Below are positions 1 to 28,656 of a DNA stretch of 50,526 bases, one piece after another (position 1 is the first letter of the stretch; each line of letters starts with the position of its first letter). The DNA is from Prorocentrum cordatum (Eukaryota), in NCBI GenBank assembly GCA_963575745.1, contig CAUYUJ010000081.1, positions 620,001 to 670,526 on the forward strand, read 5' to 3'. Made by a program: the position numbers and the translations under genes. Below the pieces are notes generated by a model. The model did no database searches, was not told where the DNA came from, and was given only the letters and a program-made list of their open reading frames with translations.

Positions 1-304
1 GCCGCGCTCCTTTTTCTCTTGGCCGCGGCAGCCCGCACCTTAGTGGTGATGCGGCGGGCTACCTCAGAAGCAGGGCGCCAGACGGCCCAGGCGAACCGCC
101 CTCACCTCCCTCCGACGGCCGTCGGGGGCGTCACGTTGGACGCAGGAGGTGGCTTGGTCTGCCTGGTCGCTGGGTGCCGAGGTTGGCAAGCCGCAGCACT
201 CAGGCGCGCGCCCACTCCATGCATGCACTCCCAGCGCGCGCGACCTCCCACGCTGCACTGAATTTGCGGAGCTGATGGGCGTCCGAGGGCCCAGGGCACG
301 GGCA

Positions 305-1255
305 TCAGATACGACGGCGTAGCAAAGACTTTCCCCTGGCTCTCAACCGTCGCCCCTTCGCGCTGAGGCCGTGGCGCTCCAGCATGGCCACGCCATCCTG
401 GATGTAAATGCGAGCCGTGGACTGGTGCCTCCAACGGCCGCGAATCCATCTCTTGGAGAGACTTCCCGGGATCTTGAAGTGGTGGGCGGCCCCTCCCTCC
501 CCGGCGCAGCGAGCACGGCTTGCACCTATCAGGGTCGGCCCCAATGGACTGGACCAGTCTCCGGAAGGCACGGCGGAAGCAGCCCGTACCGCGGGGGCAC
601 AGCTGGGTGCCAGCTGGGCGCCCTTGCAACAGCTCGGCAAGGAGCACAACAGCCTCGAGCTCGTCGATGGCGACGCGCTCGGCGGTGCCTGACCTCTTAC
701 CCCCCTGGTGAAACCGAGGTTGAGGTGCACCACGCCACGGCCCAGGTCAAAGGTGCATTGCCCAGCTGTCAACATGCACTCGACGGGGCGAAGGATGCCG
801 TTGAAGCACACCAGTACTGCCGCAGCTGTCGCTTTGTCTCCTTCCTCTAGTGCAAAGCCTGCCATCGCCAGCGCCTGCTCGGGCAACAGCGGCCGAACAC
901 GGGAAGGGATTTCGGTCTTAGACCAGGTGCCGAACAGTCTCCAAGAATCGTTGAGACCTCTGCGCAAACTTGCAACAAAATGTTGGAGCCCCGACAACGC
1001 GACTCCCACCAAGCTCTTGGATTCTCCAGCCGCCCAACAATCCTCGAGATACTCCCCAAGAACCTCATCGGCGGCCGGGATCGAGACAGGCAAGGGCTCG
1101 CCAAGGCGCAGGAGCCACTGGAAAAATACATGTGTGGCCTCCAGATACCGCTGGACAGTGCGCGGTTGGAGCTGCAATTATCTCAGGGTTCCCGCTCTGC
1201 TTCGCTCATCCCTTCTCTGCCTCGTCCCGCCACTGAGCACTATGGCTGCCACCAT
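305..1255 (-). pseudogene. Tyrosine recombinase of DIRS element 1
   Basis: FNGILRP (catalytic R), SLRRGG (HxxR-equivalent box, read in the 102..647 frame) and RGRW...TARIY (catalytic Y). ATG at 1255 overlaps the pol end. In-frame TAA at 1178-1180; compensating frameshifts at ~705 and ~495. Confidence 0.9.
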
Positions 1256-4200
1256 ATGCTCGGAGCGTCGGCCGGATTGAGCTCCGACCGAACAAAGACC
1301 CAAAATGGGTGGCTGGACGTGGCTAGCAGGAGCGCGTTCAAGCGCATGAGGATGAACTGAAGCTGGCGGGACTGCGACCTACCCTTGCAGGCCACTGCTA
1401 CGGAAACCTGAGCATCACAGAAATGAATAAACCTCGTGCGCATGTTCGCACGGCCCCTCATACGCCAAGACACGGCGGCCAAGAGGGCTTGCAGCTCCAA
1501 GACGTTGATGCGCGCGCCTCCCTGCTTGAAGCTCAGGCAAGTGCGCCAGAGCCAGCGGTCTGCATCAACGCCTCTCCTTGGCCAACCCGCAGGCTTCCAG
1601 AGGCCTCCCGTCGCGGCACGCACATCGCTGCCCTTGAAGATGGCGTTCCGCACAAGTGACTCGCAAAGGGCGCGGTGCACTTGATCGGGGGTCGCCTCGG
1701 CGGCAGGCGCGTCCAGCAGCAACTCCAGGTAGAGGCTTCCGTCCCCACCTGGGGCCCCCCAGCACTCGGCGACAGTCGGCGGCTCGCTCAAGACTCCAGC
1801 GGCCACCAAACCTCTTCCAAGCAGGAAGGCTACCACCGGGACTGAGAAGGAGTCACCCAGCAGCGAGCACTTGACGTCCTCGTCGATCGACCCCGACTCG
1901 GACTTGGGCACGGCCCAGCTGCAATGGTTCCAGGGAAACCCTAGGCGCACAGCCCGCTCTCTGCTGGTCAGAGGTCGGAGCTTGTGCTTGGCGCCCGACT
2001 CCCAAGTCCTCGCCGAAGCGGCGGATGCCTCGACCAGGTTGTCCCTGCGGTACTGGCACGGCGGGTAGCGGTACTTGTCCGCCGCCCAGCGCTCGCGCGC
2101 AGCCTGGTCGGCCACCCCCAGCCCCGCTGGGGAAGGTGGCGGCCTCTCGCGAGGGATGGAGCGCACAAGGGTGGCCCACGCTCCCTTCTCTCCCCGCGAA
2201 CGGCGCGCGCCCTGCTCGAGCTGCTCTGCCCAACTCGGCCAGCTGCCAGTGAGCACTGCCTCGATGACCTCGTCCTCCTGCTGGCACTGGAACTCCGAGG
2301 TCCCGGGCCAGAGCGGCCAGTCGACCCAGTAGAGCCTCGGCCGCTTGACGGGACTGCACCCGCCGGCACAGAGCTCCACGGGCACGACTCCCATGACCTG
2401 GCTGAAGATTCCCCTGTCGGCGGCCGTCATCGAGCTGACGTTCTCGCCCAGGGCGAATACCTGGACATCGGGGAGGGCGGCTCGCACAAGGCCTGCTACG
2501 CGAGGTAGCTCTTGCACCAGTCGCGCGCGGTCCTCGGCCCAACCCTGCCCAAAGGCGTTGATGCGAGCGACTCCCTGGCACGGGGATCCCCCCAGCACGA
2601 ACACGACGCGCAAGTGGGGCGCCTTCGACATCACGGCCTTGATGGACTTCAGCGTTATCTTGGTCACGTCTCCGAGTTCTATCGCTGACGGCCACTGCTG
2701 ATGGCTGACGCGCCGAGCCTCGGGCAGCAGCTCTGCGGTGGCGTGGGCGGCGACCTCAATCCCCAGGCGGTCGAAGGCCATCCTGCCGCCCCCGACGCCG
2801 CTGAAGAGCTCCACCAGTCCGCCCTCGTCTCTCCCGGCTGCACGACCCTGGCAGAGGTCGGCCAGCGACGGGGCGACGGCTGACTGGCGAAGCTTGTCGC
2901 TCCAGCACACGCCCCCACCGGTCTCTGAGGCGCCACTGCAGGCGACCATCGGGGCGACTGGGCATCTCAGATCGAACTGATGCAACGGGAGGAGGCAGAG
3001 CGCCAGGAAGAACTCCGCGCTCACAGCTGGAGACAGATACTGCCGAGGCGGCCCCGTCCAGGCGTTGATCAGCTTCCAGACGCGCGTGAAGACGCAGGAG
3101 CACTCCCGACGGAAGCAGTCGAGGTGGCACCAGTGCCCTGCCACCACCTGCACGTCCTTCCTGCTGACCTTGGAGCACAGAAGGTGCAGCGTCAGCTGCA
3201 CCGCCAGCCCTGCTCTAGCCGCGGGGACAACGACTCTCCCGTCACGGCCGTCAATACAGGCGCCCAGGCGCTGGCAGTGGCTGACTCTGGCGCCGTTCTT
3301 CTCGCTGAGAGGGACATCGAGGGCGCGGTACTTGGCACGAGCCGCCTGGGCGAAGCGCCCATCGTCACCGCTCTCCTCGACTTGACTCCCCTCGGCGGAG
3401 TGGGTCTCGCACGCACGCCGCTCGACCTTCTCCGCGTAGTCGGCGTCGTCGCAATACACTGCCAGACATCGCGCATGTCTCCCCCACCTCGCAAGGCTGG
3501 CACTCCGCGGTCCTTGCGAATCTCCCTCGCCTGCGGAAGGCCGAGGGGGGGGCTGCAGGCCCTGCACCAGCATGCGGCGGTGCAGGTACTGGACGAGCCC
3601 CATCGCGTTATTGTACCCCATGGGCATCGTGACCGCCCCGAGGTAGACGCTGCTCGGCAAGCGCCCCTGCAGCCCGAGCCCCTGAGGCGTGAACTTGACG
3701 TCGAACGCGAACAGCGGCGCCCAGCACTTTGGGAGCCTGAACAGGTAGAAGGCGCCCTTGAGGTCGTCGAAGGACCACGTGAGCTCCTCACCTGGGCCGA
3801 TGATGAGCGAGCGCCACTGTGCGAAGTAGGAAAGCGCCGCAATGTCCCCCTCGAAGTCGACAGTGAGGGCGTTGGTCGCCGTCAAGTTCATGATGAGCCT
3901 CAAGGTCCCAGGGTCACCATTCGGCGAGGGCTCTCCCTTCGGGACCCCTCAAAGCCCGTTCAGAAGGGGCTGCCCCGCCACTGTGATGAGGTCCTGCTCT
4001 CGAAGCGGCACCACCAGCCCACACGCGAGGAGACCTCTCCCTAGGGGAATGCGCGACGGCGGCTCACATATCACCCGGCCTGGACGTGGTCTCTCGCTGA
4101 CTGACTCCAGCGGCACCAACGTGAGCTCGGGGCGACTGAACCACTCCTGCACCCTGGTGTCGCACAGGGTCATGACGTCCAGCGATGCGCATCGCGCAAG

Positions 4201-4900
4201 CGGTGGCAAGCTCGGCAGCACTCGGGACCATGAGAAGTCCTCTGCCTTCCTGGCAACCTCCCCGGTGTAGGTGACCTGCCTGGCCGTCAGGAAAGTGGCG
4301 GCAGTCTGCTCGGGCCTGCTGCCAGGAAAGACTCAACCGTCCTCTCCAGGTTCCAAAACATTTGGACCTGGGTGCCACTCGGCTTCGCGCCTTTCCTCTT
4401 GACTCCGCTGGATGCGTCGCCTGGCCAGCAAGAGCGCCGCGCCGACCACGCGGTGTTAAGTGCTCGCATGACCAGCTCGAGCCAGACCTCCAGCCCGCCA
4501 TGGATAGGGTGGGCTCGGTGGCGGCCCACGTCGCCCCCCTCACGCTCGAGCTGCCTGTAGGCTGCAGTCTGCCTGTACTCCTCGCTCCACCCGCTCTCTC
4601 ACCCGACAGCCATCGGCATGGAGCCGCGGCCGCGCGAGGCCGCCGCGCTGCAACCGACCCCTGCCGACGCCCTGAGGGGGAGGCAGCGGGCGAGGAGGGG
4701 GCCAATGGCTGGCAGTCCCAGGCCCGACAGCTCGGCTGGATCGATCAGCCCTCGAAGGGCCTCAAGCCCAGGGCACGCCTGGCCACCGCGCTGGGCTGCT
4801 GGCGTGGAGCAGCCAGGCGCCCGAGCTCGGTCCGTCTCCGCCACCTCTCGCGGCGCCCTGATGGGTGCGAGCGAGGCGGCGGGGGGGGCCCTCAGCGGTC
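1240..4900 (-). pseudogene. DIRS pol: reverse transcriptase plus RNase H split by a DNMT domain
   Basis: RT motifs YTGEV, LNGL*GVPK (TGA 3949-3951), RLIMNL, DLKGAFYLF, MPMG and YCDD (3445-3456). RNase H motifs ACS(G)ASETGGG (~2910-2945), INVLEL (1492-1509), FCDAQV and SELNPADAPS. The upstream part is frameshifted and the start is approximate. Confidence 0.9.
1810..2820 (-). CDS. C5-cytosine DNA methyltransferase domain, Dnmt3-like, in frame within pol
   Basis: Motif I ELFSGVGGG (~2785-2811), IV GGSPCQ (2575-2592), VI ENV (2437-2445), VIII RPRLYW (2326-2343), IX LTSRERAVRLGFP and X LLGDSFSVPVV (compare Dnmt3 LLGRSWSVPVI). No stop or visible frameshift in this span. Confidence 0.92.
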
Positions 4901-7312
4901 CTTCTTCTTGTTGGCCTGGCGAAGGGCGAACCAATACTGAGGGGGGCCCTTCCTCGGTTCCTTGCCCTTGCCTGGCCCCGAGCCCTTGCCTTTCCCACTG
5001 GATCTGCCCCTGGCATTCGGCTTGCCCTTGCCTCTGCCCTTGGGCCTCGCCTTCGGCGGCGGCGAGGGGGTCCGCACTTGCCGTGCGCCGCCACGGGGTG
5101 CGCGATCGCGATCGCCCTCCTGGGACAACTCCTCCCCGTCCGATCCAACGTGGGCCGCAGGGCTCGCAGGGTTGCACCGCTTCCTCCTCGGCGGGGACTC
5201 CGAGAAGCGAACCTTGTCTCCTCCACGGTTGTCGCCCGAGGGACTGCGGTCGGCCGAGGTCGCGTCTCTTGCTGGCGTCAGTGCGACACGCCCTGCGGGA
5301 CTGCGCTCTCGAGAGCCGACCCCCCAAGCTGCCGGCCTCAGCTCGACACCACGGCTTCCTCCAGGGCCTTCCGACCCTGACCGCGGGGGCACTCCGATCA
5401 CTGCCGGCTCCCCCGCGGGCGCTTGTCAATACTGGCCACGGTTCGACCCGACCTGGCCCTCCAGCTTGCGGTAGTGCATGTCCCTCTTCTCGTCCCTGAG
5501 GAAGGCTTCGCGCTCGCGATCGTCCGCGATGCTGACGCGACCGTCGCCGACCACCGAGGCATGCCGAGCCACCTTCCACGTGCCCCCGTCGGCGTGGAGC
5601 TGCTCGATGGACTTGCACTGCTGGATCAGCACGTCCGTGGCAGCCCCCAGATCGGCTTCGAGAACTGCGTCGACCGCTGTTGCCAGCGTGCGCATCTCGA
5701 GCTCGTTGCGAGCGCGAAGCTTGCCCTGGCAGCTCGGCAGGTACACGCTGGCGAAGTCGTTCAGCATGCACGGCGCCGTGTCGCCCTCGACCGCGCGCCC
5801 CTTGCTGACGAGGTAGCTGCGCGTCTTCGCCAAGGCGCGCTCCGTGATAACGCCCGGCATCCTCTCCACAAGGCGTTTGGCCATGTCGCGCGCGGAGAGG
5901 CGGGCGTCGCGAAAACGCTTCGACGACGACCCCTCACTCGACGCACCGCCGTCAGACTCCTCGCGGCGCTTCTTCTTCTCGCGCTTCGCCTTGCGCGGAG
6001 GCGAGCCGCGAGAGCTTCCACCTCCGCCTGCAGAGCTGCCACCCTGAGAGCCGGTGCCTCTCGACTCGGCCTTGTCCGGGATCTTGCCGCTAAGGCTGGC
6101 GCGGCCCTCGGCAGGCGCACTGGGCGCTCTGTCGCGGGCCTTCTCCCGGCGAGGCGAGCGGCCCCTCTCAGCACTCTTTGCCTCGACCAGGGCTCCTCGC
6201 CCCCCCTCGTCCTCGGGGCTGTTGGAGCGGATCCTCGCTGGCGCAGACCGCAGCCCCCCGCCCCTGCCTGCGGGGCGGCCGCGCTGGGCAGCACGCTCGC
6301 GCAGCTCGCCCAGCCGCGCGCTCAGCCCTCGATCGCGGGCGCGAGGCGACGCGCCACCTCCAAGCCCCTCGCGGCGGGCGTCCGACTTGGAGCCGTCGGC
6401 GCCCGTCCCGCGCTCTCCCCGATGACCAGGGGGTGGCCCAGGGGGCGAGCTCCGCTTCGCTGGCCTGCCCTGCACGCGCCTGGCGTCCGCGATGGCCTGG
6501 TCCCCCTGGTCGCGCGTGAGCTCCTCGCCTGCGCAGCCGCGGAACGGCAGCGCGGCGCAGCGCCAGCGACCCACGCGCAGAACCTGCGCGTCGACCAGGT
6601 CCTCGCCCACGCGGCACTCGTCGGCATGAACCGCCACCGAGCAGAAAAGCAGCACTGGAGTCCTCACCGGATCGTCGAACGCCACGGCGAGCTCCCTCCG
6701 CTGGGCGGGCATCTCCGCGCCCATGTAGGCGGCCTCCCAAAGAGGCGGGGACTCGCCGCACATCGGGTCGGGAACCGTGCGGTCGTCCTGCGCTGCCTGA
6801 CCGAGCACCTTGAACGTCGCCAGCCCGTCCATCTCGACCTCGATGATCGGCGGCTGGCCCTTCCTCGGGCCCGACGTGGCAGCCGACGGCCAGGTCTCGC
6901 CCTGATACCACTCACCAGCTGGGCGGCCCGCTTCGTGACGTGAGTCGGCTGCGATGTCGTCGTCGCCATGAAGGCCAGCAGCCGCTCGGTCGCCAGGCGC
7001 GAGGTGCTCGCCCTTGCGCGACCCACGCCCACCCGAGCGGGAGCGCCGCAGCGCAGACTGGCGGAGCCCTGAGGCTGAACCCCGCCGTCCGCCTCGGCTG
7101 CCTCCGCGGCCCCCTCCGCCCCCGCCGCCTCTCGGCTTGGTGACGCCGCCGTCGGGGCGCGGTGGCGGGTGGCCGCGGGAGCGGACTCGGCCTCCGCGCG
7201 CGACGTCGGGCTTGCGCTCGCCTCGCATGGCCCTCGGCGCCAGCGAGGCTGGGCGGCGCAGCGCGGCCGAGCCACGCCGCGCTGCGGCCGCAGGCCGCCT
7301 CTTGGGTGCCAT
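4892..7312 (-). pseudogene. Gag-like ORF1 of DIRS element 1
   Basis: Starts MAPKRRPAA at 7312. Contains EMRTLATAVDAVLE..AATDVLIQQCKSIE..GTWKVA, which resembles dinoflagellate DIRS gag, and a KGKGKG-rich tail. ORFs 5426..7555 and 4892..5401 share a frame and are separated by one TGA (5426-5428). Confidence 0.75.
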
Positions 7313-7565
7313 GGCCCAAGCCTCTCCGCCTGCCGCGGCTCGCGCTCCCGACAGGGGACAGGGATCCACGGCTCCTCCTGCTGAGCCGCGAGCCGCGCGG
7401 CAGCGGGCCTCCCCATGGGGGGGTCTCGCCCGCAGGCGGAAGAATCGCCCGCGCGCGGGCGCGGATCGCGCCCCCGCGCACGGGCCGCACCTTGTTTGAA
7501 CCCAAACAACTGCGGTCGCGGAGGTGGGAGGGAGAGCACTCGCACGAATCTGCATGAATGACGGA

Positions 7566-9066
7566 CTGCACCGCGAGGGTTACGACCCAGGGGGTAAAAT
7601 GTATACACTGAACCTGTTCCCGAGGGAGAGGAGCCACCTTCGCGTCGGACAGCGCGACGGAGAGGAAAAGGGTGCAAGACGCATCACTGGAAGGAGCGAA
7701 AGGTGATAGTCAGGCAACAAGTCGGCCTGTTGCACTTCAGTCCTTTCGTAGCGGGGCTCATCAAGGAGAACTAATAGCAGCGCTTGGGCTGCGATCCAGG
7801 GCTTCTGAGGCCGGCCCCAAACCTGCGATGTGGGTGTGGAGGGCCACATGATGAGAAGGAAGCGGAGGCAGGTTTACTAAGCGGGGCCAAATCCTTTGGG
7901 GGGCCGAAGTACGTTCATTGCGCGGCTGTAAAAGGAGGGTAGCCTGTATCAGGGTCACCCAAGGGTGACTAGCAATGCTGGAGCTGCGACCCTGGCTTTT
8001 CAAGGCGTAGCCTAAACCTGCATGAGAGAGTGATGGCCACCAGCGCGTCGGATCCGCGACGGGAAAAAAAAGGGGGTGTCAGGCGCATTAGAGATGAGAG
8101 TAGATCGGCTGCTGGCGCGCGACCTTCGCACTCGCGGGCAGATTGTTCACGCGCAGGGTGTAGCACATAAAGAGTCTACCTGATGCACATGATTAGTATC
8201 AAGTACGTGCGGGCTGGTAGACTGGCCTGTGGGGGTAAAGGCTGGCCTGGAGGCATCACTGCTTAACTCAGCAAGTACGATATGTCATCTGCTGGGTGCG
8301 TTGGCAGCATAACATTAGGCATGATGGGGTCGCGCCCTGCGGGGGGGGGGGGGGCCAAGTGCGCATTGAATGCGACAGAAGTAACTTGCAATGCTAGGGC
8401 TGCGACCTAGGGCTTAAAAAGTGTACCCTGAGACTGCTCTTGGGGGAGAGGAACCGCCAGCGCGTCAGACCTGGTGACGGAGAAAAGACGGGTGCAAGTC
8501 GCATCAGTGGAAGGAGCGAGGTGATAATCGGGCAAAGAGTCGCCCCGATGCACTGCAGCCCATTCGCAGCGGGGCCCATCAATGAAAAGGAATAGTAATG
8601 CTCGGGCTGCGACCCAAGGTTTTTGAGGCGGACCCCGCACCTGCGACGCGGGCGTGGAGGACCACATGATAAGAAGGAAGCGGGGGCAAGTTCACTGAGC
8701 GGGGCCATGCCCTCCTGGGGGCCCAAGTACGTACAGTGCGCGGCTGTAGAAGGAGGGCAGCCTGCATCAGGGTCCCCAAAGGGTGACTAGCAATGCTGGA
8801 GCTGCGACCCTGGCTTTTCAAGGCGTAGCCTAAACCTGCATGAGAGAGCGATGGCCACCAGCGAGTCGGATCCGCGACAAGGAAAAGGCGGGGTGCCGGG
8901 CGCGTCAGAGACACGAATAGGTCGGCCGCTGGTGCGCCACGCACTCGCGGGCAGATTGCTCACGCGCAAGGTGTAGCACATAAAGACTCGGCCTGATGCG
9001 CACGAGCCCACTCGCAGTGGGGCTTGTCTTGCAAATGAACTAGCAACGCTTGGGCTGCGACCTAGC
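7566..9066. repeat. Diverged ~200-bp tandem array with a conserved 26-nt motif and an ~818-bp higher-order duplication
   Basis: TAGCAAYGCTNGRGCTGCGACCYWGG-like motif at 7566, 7775, 7970, 8386, 8593, 8788 and 9041, with a weak copy at ~8316. 7566-8190 aligns with 8386-9005. Confidence 0.85.
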
Positions 9067-15950: not shown

Positions 15951-16750
15951 TCACTGCCAGCGCAAAACGGGTTTTGGCAGCGCGAGGCCGCGCCCCGAGA
16001 TCCCCACGAATTTCTCTTCGAGTTTCACCACGAGGGCACGCAGCCACGGCGGGCGCGCCGCCCGCGTAGAGCTGAGACGGGCCCTCCTCGCGCAACGCAC
16101 GACTGAGCGACTAAACTTCCGCCCCCCTCGTTCCACGACCTCCGCCAGCGGGCGTTTGCGCGAGGCCATGTTGGAGCTGGCGCCGCTGTGAATGGCTCGG
16201 TGGAACAAAGCCCAGGTTCCCTGACGCCGCCTGCACGGTGGCGGCCAGCTGAAGGCAGGGGAAACGCCGCACCACCCGGTCTGGACGCCACGACCCGACG
16301 GCCTCCAATGTCGGGACCAGGCTGCTCCACAAGTCGTTGCCTAGCTCGATCCCCATGCTGAGCTTTTCGGCCTTCAAGGGGGCGACCTCGACTTGGGAGG
16401 TGGGCTGGGCGGCCAGGCGGGTAGCAACCTGGCCGGGCACGCACAGACCATCGGGCCCGAGGGCCGTTCGCTGGATCGGCCTGACACATATGCCCCATAT
16501 CAAGTGAGCGACCAAGATTATGTCGAAACGACATAGGCTGCATATGAACTGGTACACCCATTGAACATGTTGGGACTCGAACACCGGCATCACCGCGACG
16601 TGCCCCCCCAAGGTCCGGCGGGACATCACGGGGACCCTGCGCGACTCCAGCAGCAGCGTGCGAGCGCCCACCCTCGGCGCGACGGAGAGCGCGCGACTGG
16701 GCAAGGGCCTCGACGTGTCGGGGCGCCCCTACGCCTCGCCGTCGGAGCCC
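15951..16750 (-). pseudogene. Tyrosine recombinase remnant of DIRS element 2
   Basis: C-terminal AIHSGASS..RPLAEVVERGGRKFSRSVVRC..RARL matches a degenerate RHSGAS...EV..RGRW...SV.RY box. Catalytic residues are mutated; the 5' boundary is approximate. Confidence 0.6.
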
Positions 16751-17370
16751 GAGTCCTCGGCGAACCGCGGTTCGGAGCTGATCAACGGCCGCAACTGCTT
16801 CAGCAGAAACTTCGCCTCGGCGTTCGAGAGACGTGGCTGACTGGCGCGGCGGGCCAAAGCTCTCACCCCGAACGTGCTCCTGGCCCCCAGCACCGGGGAA
16901 CTGCGCTGCCACGAAGCGAACGGGCCCTGCGGATCCCGGGGGCGACGACCCCGCCCAGGGCCACCAGTCGGCGCCACTCCGGCCTGGGGCGAGGCCAGCA
17001 CTCGCACTCTGACATCTGATGTAGAGAGGTTCGGCTGCATGGACGCAGGCTTGAGCCAAGACGGCCGCGGCGGCACGGCGAGGCGCAACCACTCGGAAGA
17101 CCCCGCAGATAATTCACACAGGGCCCCACTTCACGGAACCCAAGATCTCGCGCGCAGGCGGGAGCGTGGGCTTCAAAGACGATCGGAAGATCCGCGGGCG
17201 TCTCAAGACTTACAATCTCGGGGCAGAATCGGAAAAATTGACGCCGAACGGGCGCATCTACACGGCACCGCCCGGGCCAAGGGCCCCATCCGCTTTTCCA
17301 CTGGTTTTGACTGCGTCACGGGGAGCGCGCTCACAAGGGACAGGGTCGGCCAACATCGCCCTGTCTAAGG

Positions 17371-19000
17371 TCAGCCGAAACTGACTGAGGCTGAAAACGA
17401 CAGTGCGGGCGTCAGCGGGATTCCTCTCCGACGGGATCCACCGAACAGGGAGGTGGATGTTGCGACTGAGACACCGGGCGGCCATTCTGCGCAAGACGAC
17501 AAGGATTTTGAAGGTCCGACACCGCCATCTGCCTGCGGCGAGTTCGAGCCCCAAGTTGTCTGCAAACAGAAGCTGGCGAATGTCGCGGCCAAGCCTGGCG
17601 CGGCTCACTCTCTCCAGCCCACGTAGAATCACGCGGGGTTCCAGGGCCATGATGTCCTTGGGCAGCCGAAACCTCTCTAGCCCCCGACGACCGACCACGT
17701 GGACTGCTCCGTCATGGAGCTGGGCACCTCGGCGAAGCCGGGATCAGCCAGGAGGCCGCCACGCCCAAGACGGCCCTCGACGCCCAGAAGCTCGGGCACC
17801 AGCGGGCCTCCCCCCCGGGCCGCGGCGCGGGCCCCGACGCGGTCGTCAGCGAGGTAGCGGTCTCGCTCGCGGCACCGACCGACCATCGCGACGTCGCGGG
17901 CGTCGAACCTTCGCGAGCAGATGCCGCAGCCAGTCCCCGAAGCGCCCGTAGCCACTTGAGGAGGCCCCAGTCGGACTCCCAGCTCGAGACCAGCATCACC
18001 ATCAGCCCAGCGGAAGCTCTCAGCTCGTCGGCAACGGACGGCCACAGGGCGACAAGTTGGTCGTAGTGCTCCCTGATGAGCGGGCACACCGTCGCGAACA
18101 CCAGCAGCGTCTGGCGCCTCGCCAGCCCGCAGAAGGTGGCATGGCCCAAGACGACCCCCACCTGCCGCCCCGACTGGCCGTCAGCCTCGCGCGCCGCCGA
18201 CGGCCATCACGCAGCGCGCCGAGCGCCTCGACGCCCGAGTCGGAGATGGCGACCTCATGCACGGCAAGGACCTTCGCCTCGAAAGCCGCGCAGACGTCCT
18301 CCAACTTGGAAAGAAGAGACCAGATCGCTCGTGGGTCCAACCGCCGAAGGCCAGCTTGTGTCTGGCCTTCAGGTCACAGATGACACGGGCGTAGAGCGCT
18401 AGGCTGCTGGCGAACTGGGGGTCGACGTAGCATCGCTCAGCATCATCATACAAACTGCCGCTGGCAGTAGGATCCAGCATGCGCTCGCCTGCGCCCTCCA
18501 GGAGGCAGGGAGGCCCGACCTCGCCGGCACGGCGCGAGCGCAATCGAAACGGCGTCCATCCTGTAGCCAGACGCCCTGTCACCGAGCAGTTCCCGAAGGG
18601 CCGCTTCTGGCGGCCTGTCAGAGTCCCGAGCGCCCCCCCGCACCTGAAGCTCTGCCAGCGCCTCCAGGCGGGCCGAACTATCATCCAGCCGGGGCGGCGC
18701 CTCCCGACAGGGCGGGTCGCCAACGTCGCTGGCATGAGCAGGCCGTCCTCGGACGTCAGGCGGTCGGCGGGCGTCGGTCTTTGCCGGCCAACTAAGTGCA
18801 TTACAAGAAGCCTCCACTAACTGTCGGACGTTGTCTCGAGCCCGATAGCGCCCGCGACGCCGACCGCCATCAGCAGGCGCATGTTCTCGCCGAGGAAGTG
18901 CCAGCGGGAACTGCTTGAAGAGGCGAGGAAGAGGGGAGGGCGCCCAGGCGCCCGAAAATCCCCCACCTTTAGCGGGCCGTGGCGTGGAGGGCCTGTCCAC
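17371..19000 (-). pseudogene. RT-RNase H remnant of DIRS element 2 (no DNMT insertion)
   Basis: QFPLALP, AALRELL, YVDPQF..YARVI, GVEALGA, VLGHATF, LWPSVADELRA, IMALEPR, FADNLG and VRWIPSERNPAD, spread across several frames. Confidence 0.75.
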
Positions 19001-21539: not shown

Positions 21540-24335
21540 GCGCTGGAAGATCTTAGACAGCGCTATCAAGCACAGGCGCGTGACATAGTCGTGCCTCCTG
21601 AAGGCCTCTTGGGAACATCTTGGGTCTTCGTGGGGGCATCTGAAAGGTTTCTGGAAGGTTCTCCGTATTTCCTCAATTGGTTGGCTGTTGGAGGCACCTC
21701 TTGGGTGCTTCTCGGGGAAGGTCTTGGGGCTTCTTGAGGTCCCTTGGGGGCATCGTCGGGGTTCTCCGGGCAGTCGGAAGGTGATGTTCTGCAATCTGAA
21801 GCCGTCATTGGCCGTCTTGGCCCGACTTGAGGTCACCTGGGGCCACATTGAGGAGATCCAGAAGCCTCCCGGGAGCCTCCTGGCGGCAGTTTTGATGCAT
21901 TGAAGGCACTATTCGGCTATCTGTGGGCCCCTTGTACGTCTCCTGGCGGCCTTTTGGAGCCTCTTGGGAGGATTTGGGGGGCCTCGTCGGACCAATTGGG
22001 GATTTGGGGGGCCTTTTGCGGGCCTCTTAGGGCGGAGGGCTCTTCTGTTGGGTTCGCAATCCCCTTCTTGGACCTCTCTCGGGGCCGTTTTGGGGCCTCT
22101 TCGGCTATCTTGGAGCGGTCTTGGGGGCCTCTTGGGCCGTCTTGGAGCGTCGGGATGCCGAAAAGCTGAATTCATCAAATACCGATGGGAAAACAATGAG
22201 TAGTGCCTCTTCGGGCCTTCTTGGGAGGCCTCTTGGAACCTCTTCGGCCCTCTGGGGAGCCTCTTGGGGGCATCTTGGATCAATTGGGGGGCCTATTGGG
22301 GCTTCCTGAGAGCTTCTCGGGGTGGCAGGCTCGGATGTTCGGTTCGTGTTACCCCACTCGGCTCCCTCTTGGGGCCGTCTTGGGGCCCTCTCGGGCCGTC
22401 TTGGGCGCCTCTGGCGCCGTCTTGGGGTACTCTTGGGCTGTCTTGTGGCCGTCTTCGACGCCTCTGTGGCTGTCTTGGAGCGGACATTGGCGCCTCTTGG
22501 GCCGTCGTGGAGCGTCGGGAAACTGAAAAGGCGAGAAGTCGAAAAATCCAACAACCACAAGGAAGTCAATTATTTGTGCCTCCTGGGGTTTCTTGGGAGG
22601 CATCTTGGAAGCCTCTTGGAGCGTCTTGGAGGCCTCTTGCAAAATCAGGGGCATTCTGCTGTGATCTCGGGCCGTCAATGGTCGTTTCGCGGTCTGCCTG
22701 ACGATCCGAGCCCGTCTCCGGGCGATTTTAAAGAAGCCCCGACGCCACGGCAGGGCCCCCGGGGCCTCTGGCCCGAAGGCCCAGTCCTGGGCCCCGCCTC
22801 GTGCCCACGGCAAGGCGTCCCTGGGCCGTCTCGGCGCCCTCGTGGAGGCCTGTTACTTTACAGTGAGGTGGTAGGCCTGACCATCTACTGCGACTTAGAC
22901 GTAGCCACTTACTCGGTGTGTCGTATCGCGGTAGCAATAAGGCAAGAGAGAAGAGATGACCGCGTAAGCGGCAGGAGGGTAGCATCTCAAGAGTAAAGGG
23001 TTGAACCTTTTCCGTATCGATGCTTGGTAGCGTGTCGCAACGCCACACGGTCATATTGGCGGCCGGACGCTTGGGCCAAAATGGCCGCGTACAAACTCTC
23101 GTTACTTCTCGCCTTTGTCCCCCGCCCCGCCAGCAGGAAACCCCTCGGACCTCGACCCCCGGGGGTCTCTTGGGAACCTCTTGGGGCCTCCTGGGAGGTG
23201 CTTTGGGCGGAAGGCTACAATCCTCGAGTCGGAGTTCCCCTCTTGGACCCCTCCTGCAGCCGTCTTAGTCGGGCCTTGGGTCGTCTAGGCGCCCTCTTGA
23301 GCGCCCTTGAGGGCCTCATGGGATCCTCCGGGGCCGTCTTGGGGGAGAATTGGGAGTCTCTTGGACCGTCTTCAAAGCCGTGGAGGCTGCAAAAACGTTG
23401 ATGCTGAAAGCGTACATTTTCCTATCGGAATTTAACAAGGTTGGCCTCTTGGGGCCCTCTTGGGAGTGCTCTGGCAGACCTTTTGGGACGTCTCGGAGCC
23501 TTCTTCGACCGTCTCGGGGCCATCTTGGGTCGTCTTGGGCGACTCGGGGCCTTCTTCGGCCTTCTTGGGCCCGTTTTGGGGCTAACTTGGGCCGTCTTGT
23601 GCAGCCCTTGGGCCGTATTGGCCCCCTCTTGGTCTGTCTTGAGGGCCTCTTGGGACTGTCTTAGGCACTCTTGGGCAAGTCTTCGGAGCTTGTTGGGCCG
23701 TCTTCAAGCCCGTGAATGCCGAAGCGTCGCACATGCTAAAAATGTACGGTTCCCCATGTGAATTGACGATTTTGGCCTCTTGGAGGCCTCTTGGGAGTGC
23801 TCTGGCAGGCCTCTTGGGACGTCTCGGAGCCTTCTAGGACCGTCTCGGGGCCGTCTTGGACCGTCTTGGGCGACTCTGGGCCTTCTTGGGCCGTCTTGGG
23901 CGCCGTCTTGGGGCCAACTTGGGCCGTTTGGGGCGCCTATTGGGCCGCATAGGCGCCCTCTTGGTCCGCCTGGGGGCCTCATGGGATCCTCCGGGGCAGT
24001 GTTGAGGGAGTATTGGGAGCCTCTTGGACCGTCTTCACAGCCGTGAAAGCTGCAAAGGCGCACATGCTTAAAATGTAAGTTCCCCCATCGGAACTGAATG
24101 ATTTTGGCCTCTGTAGGCCCTCTTGGGAGTGCTCTGGGAGCCTTCGTGTAGCGTCTTGGGGCCTTTCTGGGCCGTATTGGACAACTCGAGGCCTTCTTGC
24201 GCCGTCTTGGGAGCCTTTTGGAACCCTCTTGGCTCGTTTTGGCACCCTCTTGGCCTCTCCGGGCCGCCTCTTGAGAGCGAAACAGGGGGGTATCAGCGAG
24301 CGTATTAGAGTTGTTGCGGGCTGGGCCGGCCCAAA
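21540..24335. repeat. Complex satellite of ~11-bp GGCC(T/G)TCTTGG subunits in ~320-370-bp higher-order units
   Basis: Dozens of CCTCTTGG/CCGTCTTGG motifs. AT-rich linkers recur at ~22160, 22530, 23400, 23740 and 24070. A related segment in opposite orientation lies at ~24525-24720. Confidence 0.88.
23070..23085 (-). other. Dinoflagellate spliced-leader relic
   Basis: Minus strand GCCATTTTGGCCCAAG matches 15/16 nt of the DinoSL 3' end (GCCATTTTGGCTCAAG), 15 nt upstream of an ATG at 23054. Confidence 0.6.
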
Positions 24336-24348
24336 GGGGGGGGCTTTC

Positions 24349-24360
24349 TTATATATATAT

Positions 24361-24447
<87 letters not shown>

Positions 24448-24462
24448 CATGTGTGTGTGTGT
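24349..24462. repeat. (TA)n-(TG)n microsatellite
   Basis: Direct inspection. Confidence 0.97.
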
Positions 24463-24814
24463 CAGTCAGTCACCATGCCCTTGAGGCACGAGTTGGAGTG
24501 TCCTCAGGTCCTTGCTCAAGGGCCCAGAGACGGACAGGGAGTGCCCCGAGCGGCCCCCGAGATGGTCCAGGAGCGCCTCGAATCGCTGAACGAATCGGTC
24601 CAAGACGCCCAAGATGGCCTCTAGCTGGCCAAAAAAACACCCAATACGTCCCAAGAAGCCTCCAAGAGCCTTCCCAAAAGGCCCCGACCGAGATGCCAAA
24701 GTCATTGATATCCCGTAGGTGTTTCGGTGTTTTTCCCCACATGCTTCGTGGGGTTCTGGTTTTCTTCCCTGCCGCGCCGCACCCGCGACACTCACACCTC
24801 ACACCTCCCTCTCC

Positions 24815-24815
<1 letters not shown>

Positions 24816-24874
<59 letters not shown>

Positions 24875-25056
24875 CACCTCACTCTTCCCCTCCTCCTCAC
24901 AGCACTGCTCAGCACAGCTCAGCTCAGCTCAGCTCAGCTCAGCTCTGCACGGCACAGCTGAGCTCAGCTCAGCTCAGCTCAACTCAGCACAGCACAGCAC
25001 GGCACGGCACAGCACAGCACAGCTCACCGCACAGCAGCACAGCACAGCACAGCACA
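24816..25056. repeat. (CT)n followed by (CAGCT/CAGCA)n pentamer repeats
   Basis: Direct inspection. Confidence 0.95.
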
Positions 25057-25067
25057 ACGCCACAGGA

Positions 25068-25428
25068 GGTGCGCTGGGGGTGGGGACCTTATGCGTTGTA
25101 GGCTCCCAGGGCGTGGCAGGCGTGGCATTTCCTGGGCGCCGCAGGGGGTGCGCTGGGGGTGGGGGCCCTATGCGTTGTAGGCTCCCAAGGCGTGGCAGGC
25201 GTGGCATTTCCTGGGCGCCGCAGGGGGTGCGCTGGGGGTGGGGGCCCTATGCGTTGTAGGCTCCCAGGGCGTGGCAGGCGTGGCATTTCCTCGACGCCAC
25301 AGGGGGTGCGCTGGGGGTGGGGGCCCTATGCGTTGTAGGCTCCCACGGCGTGGCAGGCGTGGCATTTCCTCGACGCCACAGGGGGTGCGCCGGGGGTGGG
25401 GGCCCTATGCGTTGCAGGCTCCCAGGGT
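25068..25428. repeat. 79-bp tandem minisatellite, ~4.5 copies
   Basis: TATGCGTTG(T/C)AGGCTCCCA recurs at 25090, 25169, 25248, 25327 and 25406. Confidence 0.95.
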
Positions 25429-25432
25429 TTTG

Positions 25433-25710
25433 CGGAGGAGGAGGAGGAGGAGGAGGAGGAGGAGGACGGGGAGGTGGGGCAGCAGCAGCGGCAACAGCAG
25501 CAGCAGCTGCAGCAGCAGACGCAGCAGCAGCAGCAGCAGAAGCAGCAGCAGCAGAAGCAGCAGCAGGAGGAGGACACCAAGGAGGAGAAGGAGGAGCAGC
25601 AGCAGAAGCATCGATGGCACACATGGGAAACAAGTGGCACGCGTGCCATGGCTCTTGCACAAAAAGGTAGGGGAGGCGGAGGAGGAGGGGGAGGAGGAGG
25701 AGGAAGGGGG
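25433..25710. repeat. (GAG)n/(CAG)n trinucleotide tracts
   Basis: Direct inspection. Confidence 0.9.
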
Positions 25711-25769
25711 GGAGAGGGGGCAAAACATCGCCCCTCGGGGCCCAGCAACGGGGCCCAAAATCCCAGGTG

Positions 25770-26420
25770 GGGAGAGGGGGGGAGGTGGCGTGCGTCGCGA
25801 CACGGAATGAAGTGCTCGGAGCGGAGGGGGCCTGGGGCGGAGGTCCCATTGGGGCGCTGGGGGCGCGGAGAGGAGGGGGGGAGGTGGCGTTTGCGTCGCG
25901 ACGCGGAATCAATGGTCGGGGAGGGACGGTGGCATTGGCGGGGTTTTCGGGCAGAGGGGCCACGGGGCGGGGGTCCAATTGGGGCGCTGGGGACGCGGGG
26001 GGAGGTGGTGTGCGTCGCGACGCGGAATAAAATTGTCGGGGTGGAGGGGGCACGCGGCGGAGCCCCCACTGGGGCGCTGGGGACGCGGGGAGGGAGGTGG
26101 GGGGGGGGGGAGCTTCGCGACGCGGAATAAAACGTTCGTGGCGGAGGGGGCAGTGGGCGGGGCCCCCGCTGGGGCGCTGGGGACGCGGGGAGGCTCGGGG
26201 CAGAGAGCCACGGCGCGGGGGTCCCACTCTGGCGCTGGGGACGCGGGACGGGTGGGGATGTGCGACGAGGAATACGTTCGTGGACGAGGGGGCAGTGGGC
26301 GGGGCTCCCGCTAGGGCGCTGGGGCGGGGGAGCTCGGGGCAGAGAGCCACGGCGCGGGGGTCCCACTCTGGCGCTGAGGACGCGGGGAGGGGGGGGGGTG
26401 CGACGCGGAATAAAGTGGTC
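25770..26420. repeat. G-rich ~100-140-bp tandem repeat containing the palindrome GCGTCGCGACGC
   Basis: GGGGCGCTGGGGACGCGGG..GCGACGCGGAATAAA units, about 6 copies. Confidence 0.85.
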
Positions 26421-26494
26421 GGAGCTCTAGACACCCTGTGCAAGAGGCTAAAGACTTATGTGATGTGTCTGCTGTGTTCATTCTTCCTTTTCGC

Positions 26495-26600
26495 TTTTGG
26501 GGGGCCTCCTGGGAGGCCCTCGTCGCCACGGCTGGATCCGCCTCCAGACTCCGTCAGAACGCACCCTGGGAGAGGTCCATGGAGTGGCAGTATCGGTACC
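26495..26600 (+). repeat. Dispersed ~105-bp repeat, copy 1
   Basis: GGGCCTCCTGG.AGGCCCTCGTCGCCAC..GTCAGAACGCACC..GTATCGGTACC also occurs at 28438-28542. Confidence 0.85.
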
Positions 26601-27569
26601 TTTCAGGAGGGGGGAAAACACACAGACACAATTAAGCGTCGATCCGCAGGAAAATGTGTGAACATGTGGGAAGTGGGGGGGGGAAGACGAAAACCCATAA
26701 AATAGCAGAAAATATTGGGAATCCTGGGATTCGTGTTCCTTTGTTTGTGTTTCCCTGGGCCCCTTTAACCTTCTCCCCCCCTGTGCGCTCACACCGGTCC
26801 TGGCCGGGCCCCTCTCGGGCCCAGGGGTGGGCCTGACCAGTATCGGTGCAAGTGACCACTTGCCGCTCGAGGCCTCCCAAATGGGGCCGGAGCAGATGGG
26901 CTGGGCGACGAAATCTATAAGTACCGAGGAATCGGGCGTCTCGAAAAAATCGAGACGGAGGTTTTTCGTCGTTTTCGGCCCTTCGGGGCCCTCGCCAGGC
27001 CTCGGGACCGTCAAAAAACGACTCGGGATAAAAAACTGGTCCCGGGGAAGTGGTCGGGATGTCGGGGGCCCGTGTCTTGAAAAAATCGAGACGTCGGATG
27101 TCTGGGTATCCACTGCTCCCTGTCCAGGCCCCTGCTGAACACGGCGCCGCCCTGGCCTGGCCAGGAGGGCGTATGTGCACACAGCTCCCGGGTGCGGGCT
27201 GGGCCTGGCCAGGGAGCTGCATCGCCCGCGTGGGGTCGAAGGCTCGCCGACGTGTCGGCGGCGCGGCGCGAACGGGAGTCCGCTCTCTTCAGTGCCGCCG
27301 TCGCCCTATGCGCCAGCGGCGGGGCTCGAGCTCTCCGCCCCCCGCCTCCTGAGGTCCTCCGAGCTGATATGCTTTCGGTCCGCGGCCCCTGGCGCTCGGC
27401 ATCGTTCGGGCGGCGTGCACCGTGTTCCCCGGCGTGGGCCCTCGAGGAGCATCGCGGGCCACCTTTCGGCGGCAAGCGAGGGGGGGAAGTGAGAAGGAGA
27501 AGGCCTTCCGAGAAGGTTGGGAAGTCCCCAGGCCTCCCGAGAAGTCTTCCAAGCCCTCCACGAAGACAG

Positions 27570-27735
27570 TCCTCCTCCCTCCTCCTCCTTTCTCCTCCCT
27601 CCTCCTCCACATCCCTCCTCCCCTCACTCCTCCTCTTCCTCATTCTCCTCCTCTTCTTTCCTCATCCTTCCTCCTACACTTGCCTCCTTCCTCCTCCGCC
27701 TCCTCCTCCACCTACCTCCTTCATCCTCCTCCTCG

Positions 27736-27781
<46 letters not shown>

Positions 27782-27870
27782 GCTCTTCCTCCTCTTCCTC
27801 CTCATCCTACTCTTCCTCCTCCTCCTCCTCCTCCTCCTACTCTTCCTCCTCTTCCTCCTCCTCCTCCTCT
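27570..27870. repeat. (CCT)n/(CAT)n low-complexity tract
   Basis: Direct inspection; similar tracts at 28560-28700, 29440-29750, 29955-30160 and 30421-30510. Confidence 0.92.
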
Positions 27871-28542: not shown

Positions 28543-28624
28543 TCTTCGTTTCTCCAGACGTGGAGGAAGGAGGGGGAAGAGGAGGAGGAGGAGGAGGAGG
28601 AGGAGGAGGAGGAGGAGGAGGAGG

Positions 28625-28656
<32 letters not shown>

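Follow-up and report, generated by a model that had tools for sequence, protein, structure and literature searches.

A cytosine methyltransferase encoded within the polymerase frame of a retrotransposon raises the question of how it is built into the enzyme that copies the element: is it joined end to end between the reverse transcriptase (RT) and the RNase H, or is it lodged inside one of them? Retrotransposons with their own cytosine methyltransferase are known; a description of how such a methylase is wired into the replication machinery was not found, as far as the searches reach. The question arises here for element 1, a DIRS-type element at positions 305-7579 on the minus strand of the window, i.e. 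the whole 50,526-nucleotide stretch of a Prorocentrum cordatum contig that was analysed. A first-pass annotation of this DNA had proposed that the methylase interrupts the RNase H.

The pol frame of element 1

All parts of the element 1 pol are carried by a single 902-codon open reading frame with its stop at 1240-1242 (Table 1), and residues 1-901 of this frame match positions 272-1156 of the family profile. The first-pass annotation had placed the first RNase H strand N-terminal to a complete C5-methyltransferase and the motifs INVLEL, FCDAQV and NPAD C-terminal to it, all in one frame, and both sets of motifs lie where it had put them. The motif ahead of the methylase, ACSGASETGGGVC, occupies residues 336-348 (window 2905-2943) and corresponds to the family pattern '[ST]DAS..GGG'; those behind it contribute E818 (INVLEL, 1495-1497), D845 (FCDAQV, 1414-1416) and D894 (NPAD, 1267-1269), the last of which is carried together with N891 by helix alphaE. 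In the AF2 model 451 residues separate beta2 from beta3. The loop that ends the return linker, 'KGSDVR...WPR' (G773, D775, R791), is conserved in a role that the nesting of the methylase does not explain.

Table 1. Features of elements 1 and 2, with positions in the window
Feature	Position	Strand	Remarks
Element 1 pol frame	1240..3948	-	order RT, RNase H beta1-beta2, DNMT, RNase H beta3 to alphaE
RT palm and thumb, residues 1-330	2959..3948	-	YCDD box at ~3456
RNase H beta1-beta2 hairpin, residues 331-350	2899..2958	-	AF2 strands, docking, family conservation
Outgoing linker, one helix, residues 351-369	2842..2898	-	AF2 helix, model 55-67; leads from hairpin to methylase
Dnmt3-like C5 cytosine methyltransferase, residues 370-722	1783..2841	-	Pfam, PDB sequence and structure matches
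Return linker, residues 723-801	1546..1782	-	three helices (AF2 model 426-467), then conserved loop
RNase H C-part: beta3, alphaA, beta4, alphaB, alphaD, beta5, alphaE	1243..1545	-	AF2 elements and conservation
In-frame TGA cutting the RT	3949..3951	-	family consensus there ...LNGLFGV...
Tyrosine-recombinase-like frame downstream of pol	305..1177	-	recombinase-like boxes by eye only, in two frames
Element 2, decayed DIRS copy without methylase	~16038-18206	-	hmmsearch E 5.6e-5 and 0.002 (six-frame ORFs); tblastn E 1.4e-4
Element 2 RT thumb	17715-18206	-	family profile on six-frame ORFs
Element 2 hairpin-like 'TGAS..G.G'	~17949	-	in another frame
Element 2 RNase H C-part	17261-17743	-	family profile on six-frame ORFs
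Element 2 recombinase remnant	16038-16190	-	part of the decayed copy

The locus itself is ordinary. The first catalytic Asp of the RNase H is replaced in element 1 by Gly339 (codon GGC, 2932-2934), a change predicted to abolish catalysis by the RNase H of this copy. The RT is cut by an in-frame TGA; its N-part lies upstream of this stop, without a change of frame, at 3952-4332 and matches profile positions 150-270, directly before the stretch matched by the pol frame. The recombinase-like frame downstream is seemingly broken by two frameshifts, with its middle part in frame at 102-746; Pfam recognised no family in it, and tblastn with the recombinase of a methylase-free relative matched element 2, not element 1. 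Judged from its sequence, element 1 is thus a dead copy by its Gly339, its TGA and its recombinase frameshift, the last being only probable. The terminal repeats of DIRS-Dnmt3 elements follow the order A - coding - B - A - B; upstream of element 1 only direct repeats of ~818 bp (7567-9065) were seen and no inverted ones, and the window begins near the 3' end of the element. When pieces of the pol and recombinase were compared with the window by tblastn, element 1 alone was matched and no second copy was found; a Pfam scan of 107 further ORFs of the window gave two weak sub-threshold matches and no retroelement domain. The window is rich in repeats and in remnants of other elements.

The methyltransferase domain

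The first-pass claim of a complete Dnmt3-like C5-methyltransferase is upheld by Pfam, by sequence matches in the PDB and by structure. The methylase spans from motif I at ~2820 to motif X at ~1810 on the minus strand, and the Pfam family DNA_methylase (PF00145) matches the element 1 protein with E 3.9e-11. The best PDB sequence matches are the catalytic domains of DNMT3A and DNMT3B (E ~4e-9; DNMT3B E 3.5e-9), in an alignment that reaches DNMT3B residues 14-178 with motif X also aligned. The structure match to DNMT3B (6u8p_A) takes in 275 of 291 residues over model 73-421, with Z 28.5 and rmsd 2.9. Translation and a script place motifs I, IV (PCQ, with Cys457 at 2578-2580), VI (ENV), VIII, IX and X in their canonical order, without permutation, and P156, C157, E202 and V204 (model numbering) are at least 90% conserved among 68 sequences. 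Pfam found neither the PWWP nor the ADD domain of animal Dnmt3 in the element 1 protein (P0001), where RNase H strands stand on either side of the methylase. By its sequence and structure matches the domain is a Dnmt3-type C5-methyltransferase.

A predicted RNase H fold in two pieces

In type 1 RNase H, helices A, B, D and E accompany a five-stranded sheet of order 3-2-1-4-5. An AF2 model of pol residues 301-902 (model positions 1-602), built with 68 sequences, has a pLDDT of 91.3 and a pTM of 0.90. In it the hairpin ahead of the methylase forms two strands (model 31-40 and 44-50, pLDDT 97), and behind the methylase there are only three strands (502-508, 539-544 and 580-585) together with helices at 514-529, 547-555, 561-576 and 594-597. 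The RNase H1 chain 4e19_A aligns with 123 of its 133 residues (Z 15.6, rmsd 2.3) across model 31..602, and chain 3u3g_D with 127 of 140 (Z 15.2, chain 1..137). Since only ~104 residues follow model residue 498, the hairpin must contribute to the residues aligned with RNase H1.

The two halves were also folded as separate pieces by ESMFold2, with the hairpin piece (24-56) set against the post-methylase piece (450-602), which includes the rival Asp (D775). Three runs scored 0.80, 0.80 and 0.79 as compared to 0.01 for the best control, a result to be read with the caveat that both folding programs are familiar with the RNase H fold, so that a split domain can pass this test by its likeness to solved structures. 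In calibration, 51 of 78 solved complexes attained this mark, as did 2 of 108 mismatched pairs. At least 95% of the contacts were common to the three runs, with a partner pLDDT of at least 80. Antiparallel pairing joins residues 45-49 to 507-501, and parallel pairing joins 31-36 to 539-543, which gives the order 3-2-1-4. The contact pattern puts the insertion point at the opposite end of the sheet from the catalytic residues, and helices of the return linker (454-466) are on the interface list as contacting the hairpin.

Taken over the AF2 model, the structure alignment and the two-piece pairings, the full 3-2-1-4-5 sheet with helices A, B, D and E is found in the element 1 models, built from a discontinuous chain in place of the one continuous stretch of type 1 RNase H; the structural evidence consists of predictions throughout. 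A Pfam scan recognised no RNase H in the element 1 protein or in any of 13 relatives. The methylase is predicted to lie within the beta2-beta3 hairpin of the RNase H, at the end opposite the catalytic site, because of the AF2 strands, the RNase H1 match, the docking of the two pieces and the position of D775 in a low-confidence loop. The proposal of a domain within a domain, as opposed to a tandem fusion, is thus borne out by the AF2 strands, by an RNase H1 alignment that covers both halves, by the two-piece fold and by the conserved Asp ahead of the methylase. The finding that the first-pass annotation had named as fatal to it, a complete RNase H wholly on one side of the methylase, was looked for in the AF2 model and the structure alignments and is absent from them.

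Conservation across the family

Type 1 RNase H has four carboxylates, Asp, Glu, Asp and Asp. All four are retained in the family alignment, which was made of proteins fetched for this analysis and whose row number varies by position: the hairpin position of Gly339 is Asp in 156 of 161 rows, and E818, D845 and D894 are kept in 111/112, 110/110 and 102/102. The Gly is common to the three closest sequences (element 1, P0003 and P0006), a subfamily that may have lost RNase H activity or may survive without the hairpin Asp; the closest named relatives of element 1 are from Prorocentrum cordatum. The RT-hairpin-DNMT-RNase H order is colinear in all 17 near-length homologues and in all of the best 150 of 3793 library proteins (E <= 1e-30), most of these as one stretch across the whole profile, and 84 proteins cover both flanks of the methylase.

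Relatives without a methylase

The assignment of element 1 to DIRS pol is confirmed by profile-profile alignment of methylase-bearing against methylase-free DIRS pol, which runs through the RT and ends at the hairpin with probability 100 and E 1e-48. Pfam RVT_1 was not found in the element 1 protein, and according to the available text of the paper on DIRS-Dnmt3 elements this family also misses their RTs (PMC5890265). The folded RT of a methylase-free pol resembles those of MMLV (Z 16.0, rmsd 7.3, 378 aligned) and Ty3 (Z 15.9, rmsd 8.3, 360 aligned).

The methylase-free dinoflagellate DIRS elements (element 2 and proteins P0169-P0192, including one of Symbiodinium necroappetens) share with element 1 the RT, the 'DAS..G.G' hairpin after the thumb and the RNase H C-part. 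In them, too, the beta2-beta3 turn is where the RNase H chain is interrupted, by an insert that is ~80 residues long, partly helical and of lower confidence, as opposed to the ~450 residues with methylase in element 1. In the control P0175, 4e19_A aligns with 124 of 133 residues over model 422..625, and strands at 425-431 and 435-442 are followed by the next only at 523-529, an insert of ~80 residues at the turn. Both motifs were found in 21 of 32 methylase-free proteins, with an Asp-to-Glu spacing of 98-117 aa. A MAFFT alignment of methylase-free with methylase-bearing proteins scattered the insert region and had no part in locating the insertion point. By reading alone, the conserved loop after the methylase would be homologous to the methylase-free insert, the profile-profile alignment being N-terminal only.

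Element 2 had been offered as a local control with an uninterrupted RNase H. It indeed lacks a methylase, but its RNase H is not uninterrupted: the copy is frameshifted, ~97 codons lie between its hairpin and helix A, and the intact relatives have their ~80 residues at this place.

Contents of the insertion site

Besides the methylase, the site holds DUF4326 in P0054 and P0132 and a 2OG-Fe(II) dioxygenase-like segment in P0011, i.e. one or the other in 3 of 93 rows, and linker lengths at the site vary between family members. The hairpin apparently behaves as an insertion slot, because ~80 residues are already present there in methylase-free relatives and a further domain is found there in some members. 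A recurrent insertion slot is thereby identified, one in which other DNA-modifying domains are also present. It may further be, although the authors rate this as rather unlikely, that the slot has repeatedly taken DNA-modification domains and holds them rigidly so that they modify new cDNA in cis in a host-like manner, and, under the same low joint rating, that the ~80-residue insert is the ancestral content of the slot. If so, the cDNA would acquire 5mC, and in the variant with the (Tet/JBP-like) dioxygenase perhaps an oxidised base of a kind that is abundant in dinoflagellate DNA.

A proposed mechanism and its rivals

The explanation preferred here as a whole, in which good confidence is placed, is that element 1 is a dead DIRS-Dnmt3 copy whose RNase H is split by the methylase at the beta2-beta3 turn, together with the following likely mechanism. 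Strand beta1, with the family's first catalytic Asp, and strand beta2 would come directly after the RT thumb; the chain would then leave the sheet at the beta2-beta3 turn, run through the linker helix, the methylase, the three return helices and the conserved loop, and re-enter as beta3 to complete the RNase H with Glu, Asp and Asp. The spacing between RT and RNase H matters in retroelement replication, and DIRS pol is not known to be cleaved by a protease; a distal hairpin would therefore accommodate a cargo of ~450 residues while the RNase H keeps its place with respect to the polymerase. The methylase would ride on the replication enzyme and, acting in cis, methylate the element's own cDNA at CG sites, its substrate most probably being duplex DNA and not the RNA:DNA hybrid. 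Nesting predicts a fixed geometry among the three active sites that is open to modelling. It also carries a warning for annotation: domain strings of the form RT - DNMT - RNase H conceal that one domain is split, with its first catalytic Asp ~480 residues ahead of its second catalytic residue.

The evidence is evenly balanced as to whether the nesting, although real, has nothing to do with the hybrid, the turn being a permissive surface site and the methylase in effect a tethered free enzyme that acts on finished double-stranded cDNA or on nearby chromatin. The exit of the insertion at the sheet end opposite the catalytic residues favours this, as do the variable linkers and the tolerance of unrelated contents (~80 residues, DUF4326, a 2OG-dioxygenase-like segment), whereas the pTM of the two-domain model suggests a fixed arrangement and not a floppy one, and the return-linker helices touch the hairpin. 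A permissive site is compatible with the preferred explanation, and differs mainly on substrate from the first-pass annotation, which had set the methylase beside the RNA:DNA hybrid for methylation of nascent cDNA. As it was put, that placement is not supported: the insertion leaves the sheet far from the catalytic residues in the contact pattern.

Much less can be said for a tandem fusion, in which a complete RNase H would follow the methylase with D775 as its first catalytic residue and the 'SDAS' hairpin would be a vestige or an RT connection; the authors consider it very improbable. Conservation of D775 in 108 of 119 rows (Glu in 7), of G773 in 117 of 119 and of R791 speaks for it, as does the 43-residue distance from D775 to E818, which, judged by the canonical Asp-Glu spacings of type 1 RNase H, is within reach. 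However, the AF2 model has no strand at 471-490, where pLDDT is 55, and only three strands after the methylase; the alignment of full RNase H1 chains begins at model residue 31 and not near ~470; and the D775 segment was available in the two-piece fold, yet the hairpin took the places of beta1 and beta2. The hairpin Asp is moreover the better conserved of the two (156/161) and belongs to a classical motif after the RT thumb, as in the methylase-free relatives. D775 was rejected as the start of a complete RNase H on the AF2 strands, the RNase H1 alignment and the two-piece fold. This residue, which the first-pass annotation had missed, was a competing candidate for the true first strand and needed to be eliminated.

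That the arrangement is an accident of the locus, with a methylase or another element fallen into a DIRS copy, or a misassembly, and the common frame fortuitous, can be dismissed as next to impossible, since for all the decay of the copy and the repeats and remnants around it the colinear order is family-wide (17/17 near-length homologues, the best 150 of 3793 library proteins, 84 proteins spanning both flanks).

Comparison with known systems

The preferred arrangement, a methylase nested in the RNase H, has a parallel in the RNase H-like DDE transposases (hAT/Hermes, Tn5, RAG1), in which a whole domain is inserted in the catalytic fold and the fold still assembles. In those proteins the insertion occupies another position of the fold and does not bring in an enzyme of a different class, and what receives it is a transposase and not the RNase H of a retroelement.

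The nearest described system is SymbioDIRS-Dnmt3 of Symbiodinium, whose pol ORF combines RT, RNase H and a Dnmt3-type methylase and which encodes its tyrosine recombinase, in place of a DDE integrase, in another ORF (PMC5890265), and whose DNMT carries out de novo CG methylation (de Mendoza et al. 2018, PMC5890265). The proposal that the cDNA is methylated in cis as it is reverse-transcribed goes back to that work, to its main text and peer-review file (PMC5890265), and the DIRS-Dnmt3 layouts were described as 'two distinct structures ... distinct orders of domains' (PMC5890265). The available text on DIRS methyltransferase elements, figures aside, holds no statement on a split RNase H (PMC5890265; 10.64898/2026.05.21.726589), and no literature was found on methyltransferase-bearing DIRS retrotransposons in Prorocentrum. 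DIRS elements with a Dam-like N6-adenine methyltransferase likewise carry a DNA methyltransferase in the pol of a tyrosine-recombinase retrotransposon, but one of unrelated fold that modifies a different base (PMC5890265; 10.64898/2026.05.21.726589). KnitGypsy-Dnmt3 of Klebsormidium nitens is an independent capture of a Dnmt3-type methylase into a pol polyprotein, on a Gypsy-type backbone (PMC5890265). Element 1 shares with SymbioDIRS-Dnmt3 its DIRS type, the Dnmt3-type methylase in pol and a dinoflagellate host (PMC5890265), whereas its closest named relatives are from Prorocentrum cordatum and not from Symbiodiniaceae. On the available text of that description, element 1 belongs among the DIRS-Dnmt3 elements already published (de Mendoza et al. 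2018, PMC5890265).

Nesting of the methylase in the pol frame of element 1

The pol protein of element 1, the DIRS-Dnmt3 retrotransposon copy of the window, is read as 902 codons of a single minus-strand frame from 3948 to 1243, with the stop at 1240-1242. The first-pass annotation had placed the first catalytic strand of an RNase H, the methylase and the remaining RNase H motifs in one frame, and its positions for all three are correct (see table). Pfam detects only the methylase in this protein (PF00145, pol residues 379-513, E 3.9e-11), with no match to RT, RNase H or integrase families. Among solved proteins, sequence comparison ranks the DNMT3B and DNMT3A catalytic domains first (E ~4e-9) and plant DRM2 next (E 1.4e-7).

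Coding features of element 1 and of element 2, the second DIRS copy of the window
Feature	Pol residues	Window position	Strand	Basis
Element 1, RT boxes, YCDD box		~3456	-	read in pol frame
Element 1, site A motif 'ACSGASETGGGVC'	336-348	2905-2943	-	pol translation
Element 1, C5-methyltransferase, motifs I, IV (Pro-Cys), VI (ENV), VIII, IX, X	~377-713		-	pol translation
Element 1, INVLEL, FCDAQV, NPAD	~100 residues past methylase		-	pol translation
Element 2, RT thumb		17715-18206	-	family profile on six-frame ORFs
Element 2, site A-like motif 'TGAS', different frame, Gly at family Asp		~17949	-
Element 2, RNase H C-part		17261-17743	-	family profile on six-frame ORFs
Element 2, recombinase remnant		16038-16190	-

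Use of residues 300-902 as query against 5.8 billion proteins yields 17 homologues, all 17 of them colinear with the query; the best is a Prorocentrum cordatum protein, and 4 of the 17 matches bear that species name. The family profile built from these 18 sequences (query plus homologues) and run against 1.84 billion cluster representatives recovers 3793 proteins at E <= 1e-30, and in all of the best 150 of these the methylase lies between the two RNase H parts, mostly within a single matched stretch. The arrangement is a family trait and not an accident of the element 1 locus. Element 1 is of the Dnmt3-bearing DIRS kind described from Symbiodinium, as represented in the accessible part of de Mendoza et al. 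2018 (PMC5890265).

Judged by its sequence, the element 1 copy itself is dead. The first catalytic Asp is replaced by Gly (codon GGC, 2932-2934), a residue shared by the two closest relatives (P0003 and P0006), and an in-frame TGA at 3949-3951 breaks the RT, upstream of which the family profile goes on in the same frame (3952-4332) and then in a different one (4290-4598). Recombinase-like boxes seen by eye are split over two minus-strand frames (305-1177 and 102-746), which suggests two frameshifts in the downstream recombinase; no profile confirms these frames. Direct repeats of ~818 bp with 76-89% identity occupy 7567-9065, just upstream of the putative gag-like ORF of element 1 (5429-7579, minus strand).

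Predicted fold of the split RNase H

A type 1 RNase H fold requires five strands. In the AlphaFold2 model of residues 301-902 (alignment of 68 family sequences, mean pLDDT 91.3, pTM 0.90; model residue i is protein residue i+300), site A, the conserved Asp motif before the methylase, forms two strands (model 31-40 and 44-50, block pLDDT 97), after which a helix (55-67) runs into the methylase (~70-422), itself followed by return helices (426-467). A complete RNase H on one side of the methylase, which the first-pass annotation had held to be incompatible with nesting, was looked for after the methylase, and just three strands are present there (502-508, 539-544 and 580-585), together with helices at 514-529, 547-555, 561-576 and 594-597.

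Structural alignment against 48,161 PDB representatives matches the methylase part to DNMT3B (6u8p_A; Z 28.5, rmsd 2.9, 275 of 291 residues, model 73..421). Entire RNase H1 chains align across the methylase over model 31..602: 4e19_A with 123 of 133 residues (Z 15.6, rmsd 2.3) and 3u3g_D with 127 of 140 (chain 1..137, Z 15.2, rmsd 2.5). Human RNase H1 (2qk9_A; Z 13.1, rmsd 3.8, 122 aligned) and the HIV-1 RT RNase H (6uir_A; Z 12.5, rmsd 2.4, 112 aligned) are also matched. Because 123-127 residues align from residue 31 on and only ~104 residues lie beyond 498, the RNase H1 alignment includes the site A hairpin.

When the hairpin (model 24-56) and the post-methylase part (450-602) are given to ESMFold2 as separate chains without alignments, the scores are 0.80, 0.80 and 0.79, whereas the highest of three controls scores 0.01. 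In calibration, 51 of 78 solved complexes and 2 of 108 mismatched pairs attained this mark, although a known fold cut in two may pass simply by resembling solved structures. The runs share at least 95% of contacts, with partner pLDDT of at least 80. The lowest-error contacts pair 45-49 antiparallel with 507-501 (beta2 with beta3) and 31-36 parallel with 539-543 (beta1 with beta4), which is the canonical RNase H sheet order 3-2-1-4-5, and model E518, D545 and D594 lie in the interface with the hairpin. This shows that the predicted pieces fit the RNase H pattern; folding in the cell is a separate matter.

An alternative first strand is offered by site B, the Asp motif after the methylase ('K-G-S-D-V-R', ~43 residues ahead of the helix-A Glu). 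Were site B beta1, a complete RNase H would be located past the methylase and the nesting would therefore fail. Both motifs are conserved among 204 aligned stretches from 167 fetched family proteins: in site A ('[ST]-D-A-S-x-x-G-G-G') the Asp is found in 156/161 rows (Gly 4, His 1) and the following Ala in 161/161, and in site B D775 is found in 108/119 (Glu 7) and G773 in 117/119, with E818 in 111/112, D845 in 110/110 and D894 in 102/102. However, site B (model 472-478) sits in the sole weak, strand-free stretch of the AlphaFold2 model (471-490, pLDDT 55), beyond which the strand count stays short. Site B was also deliberately kept within the 450-602 piece, so that it had a fair chance in the two-piece fold, and the hairpin still paired as beta1/beta2. 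Site B as first strand is rejected on the AlphaFold2 strands, the RNase H1 alignments beginning at model 31 and the two-piece fold. Support for the domain-in-domain nesting, rather than tandem fusion, of a Dnmt3-like methylase in the RNase H of a DIRS pol comes from two controlled prediction methods, from structural alignment and from conservation.

The site B loop (residues ~767-801, window 1546-1650, minus strand) is predicted with low confidence, with G773, D775, R791, W799 and W801 strongly conserved; by eye it is similar to the stretch 'G-W-E-x-D..F.E-I-P' in the DNMT-less insert. Its partner may be nucleic acid or the RT, which is absent from the model.

The insertion slot and its contents

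In the two-piece pairings the chain exits the sheet where beta2 ends and comes back in where beta3 begins. The active-site positions are at the opposite ends of the strands (position 39 close to the beta1 C-terminus, D545 past beta4, E518 just past beta3), and the methylase is thus attached at the sheet end opposite the active site. As modeled, this attachment point does no favour to the putative placing of the methylase beside the RNA:DNA hybrid. The methylase body may reach the RNase H substrate despite its distal attachment, and the high pTM suggests that the methylase-RNase H arrangement is fixed.

Across 93 family rows covering both flanks of the slot, the beta2-beta3 hairpin, median lengths are 28 residues from beta2 to methylase motif I, 325 from motif I to motif X and 62 from motif X to site B. 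The last segment is far longer in three of the 93 (P0054 161, P0132 164 and P0011 245 residues). DUF4326 lies here, between methylase and RNase H C-part, in P0054 (1111-1190, E 3.1e-15) and P0132 (920-998, E 4.3e-15), above the Pfam cut-off. The extra P0011 segment (residues ~400-570) has HxD...H...R-x-S-like spacing and matches Tet_JBP weakly (E 0.0013; 18.5 bits against a Pfam cut-off of 34.9). Among the language-model clusters closest to it are those of the 2OG-Fe(II) oxygenase (score 0.92) and Tet_JBP (score 0.87) families. These contents are leads only; P0011 may represent a retrotransposon in which a dioxygenase accompanies the cytosine methylase. In another relative, P0017, DUF4326 lies close to the N-terminus instead, and the Pro-Cys and ENV motifs of the methylase are missing.

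Element 2 and DNMT-less relatives

Element 2 was missed by tblastn of element 1 pieces and by Pfam and was found by the family profile on six-frame ORFs (~16038-18206, minus strand) as a DNMT-less, frameshifted copy. Proposed as a local control with uninterrupted RNase H, it does lack the methylase, but its RNase H is interrupted, with ~97 codons between hairpin and helix A. Classical RNases H space the Asp and Glu by ~35-38 residues (E. coli D10/E48, HIV-1 D443/E478). Among 32 intact DNMT-less relatives examined, both motifs could be located in 21, and in these 21 the spacing is 98-117 residues. In one DNMT-less relative, P0175 (AlphaFold2 with 29 sequences, high confidence over residues 20-625), beta1 (425-431) and beta2 (435-442) are separated from beta3 (523-529) by a partly helical insert of ~80 residues (pLDDT ~60 at 461-500), and RNase H1 4e19_A aligns over 124 of 133 residues (model 422..625, Z 13.6, rmsd 2.6). 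Profile-profile comparison of the DNMT-bearing and DNMT-less families (probability 100, E 1e-48) spans the RT and stops exactly at the hairpin in both. Since the DNMT-less relatives are interrupted at the same hairpin, the methylase entered a hairpin already interrupted.

Elsewhere in the window, an ORF at 44316-45200 (plus strand) has Copia-like RT boxes by eye ('YKGQVVFDGSDV...', 'IIYADDFKLAG') and no Pfam match, and a 422-codon ORF at 46892-48157 (plus strand), Cys/His-rich in its N-terminal part, matches no Pfam family save weakly DUF6280 (E 0.0049). The long microsatellite and low-complexity stretch at 24000-30800 yields numerous ORFs that are long but spurious, in every frame.

Relation to known DIRS-Dnmt3 elements

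The catalytic residues of both enzymes are conserved in the family, and the RNase H fold is discontinuous in the models. In intact members, nesting at the distal hairpin would add ~450 residues and leave the polymerase-to-RNase H geometry unchanged, and the tethered methylase would mark the element's own cDNA. Because duplex DNA is the substrate of Dnmt3-type enzymes, it would most probably act once the cDNA is duplex DNA. In the accessible part of PMC5890265 the element's methylase is reported as able to methylate CG de novo, and its authors proposed cis methylation of cDNA. A literature search covering text passages of that paper found no statement in print of the split RNase H and its insertion slot. 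Element 1 is not a previously described copy but a decayed member of the published DIRS-Dnmt3 kind.
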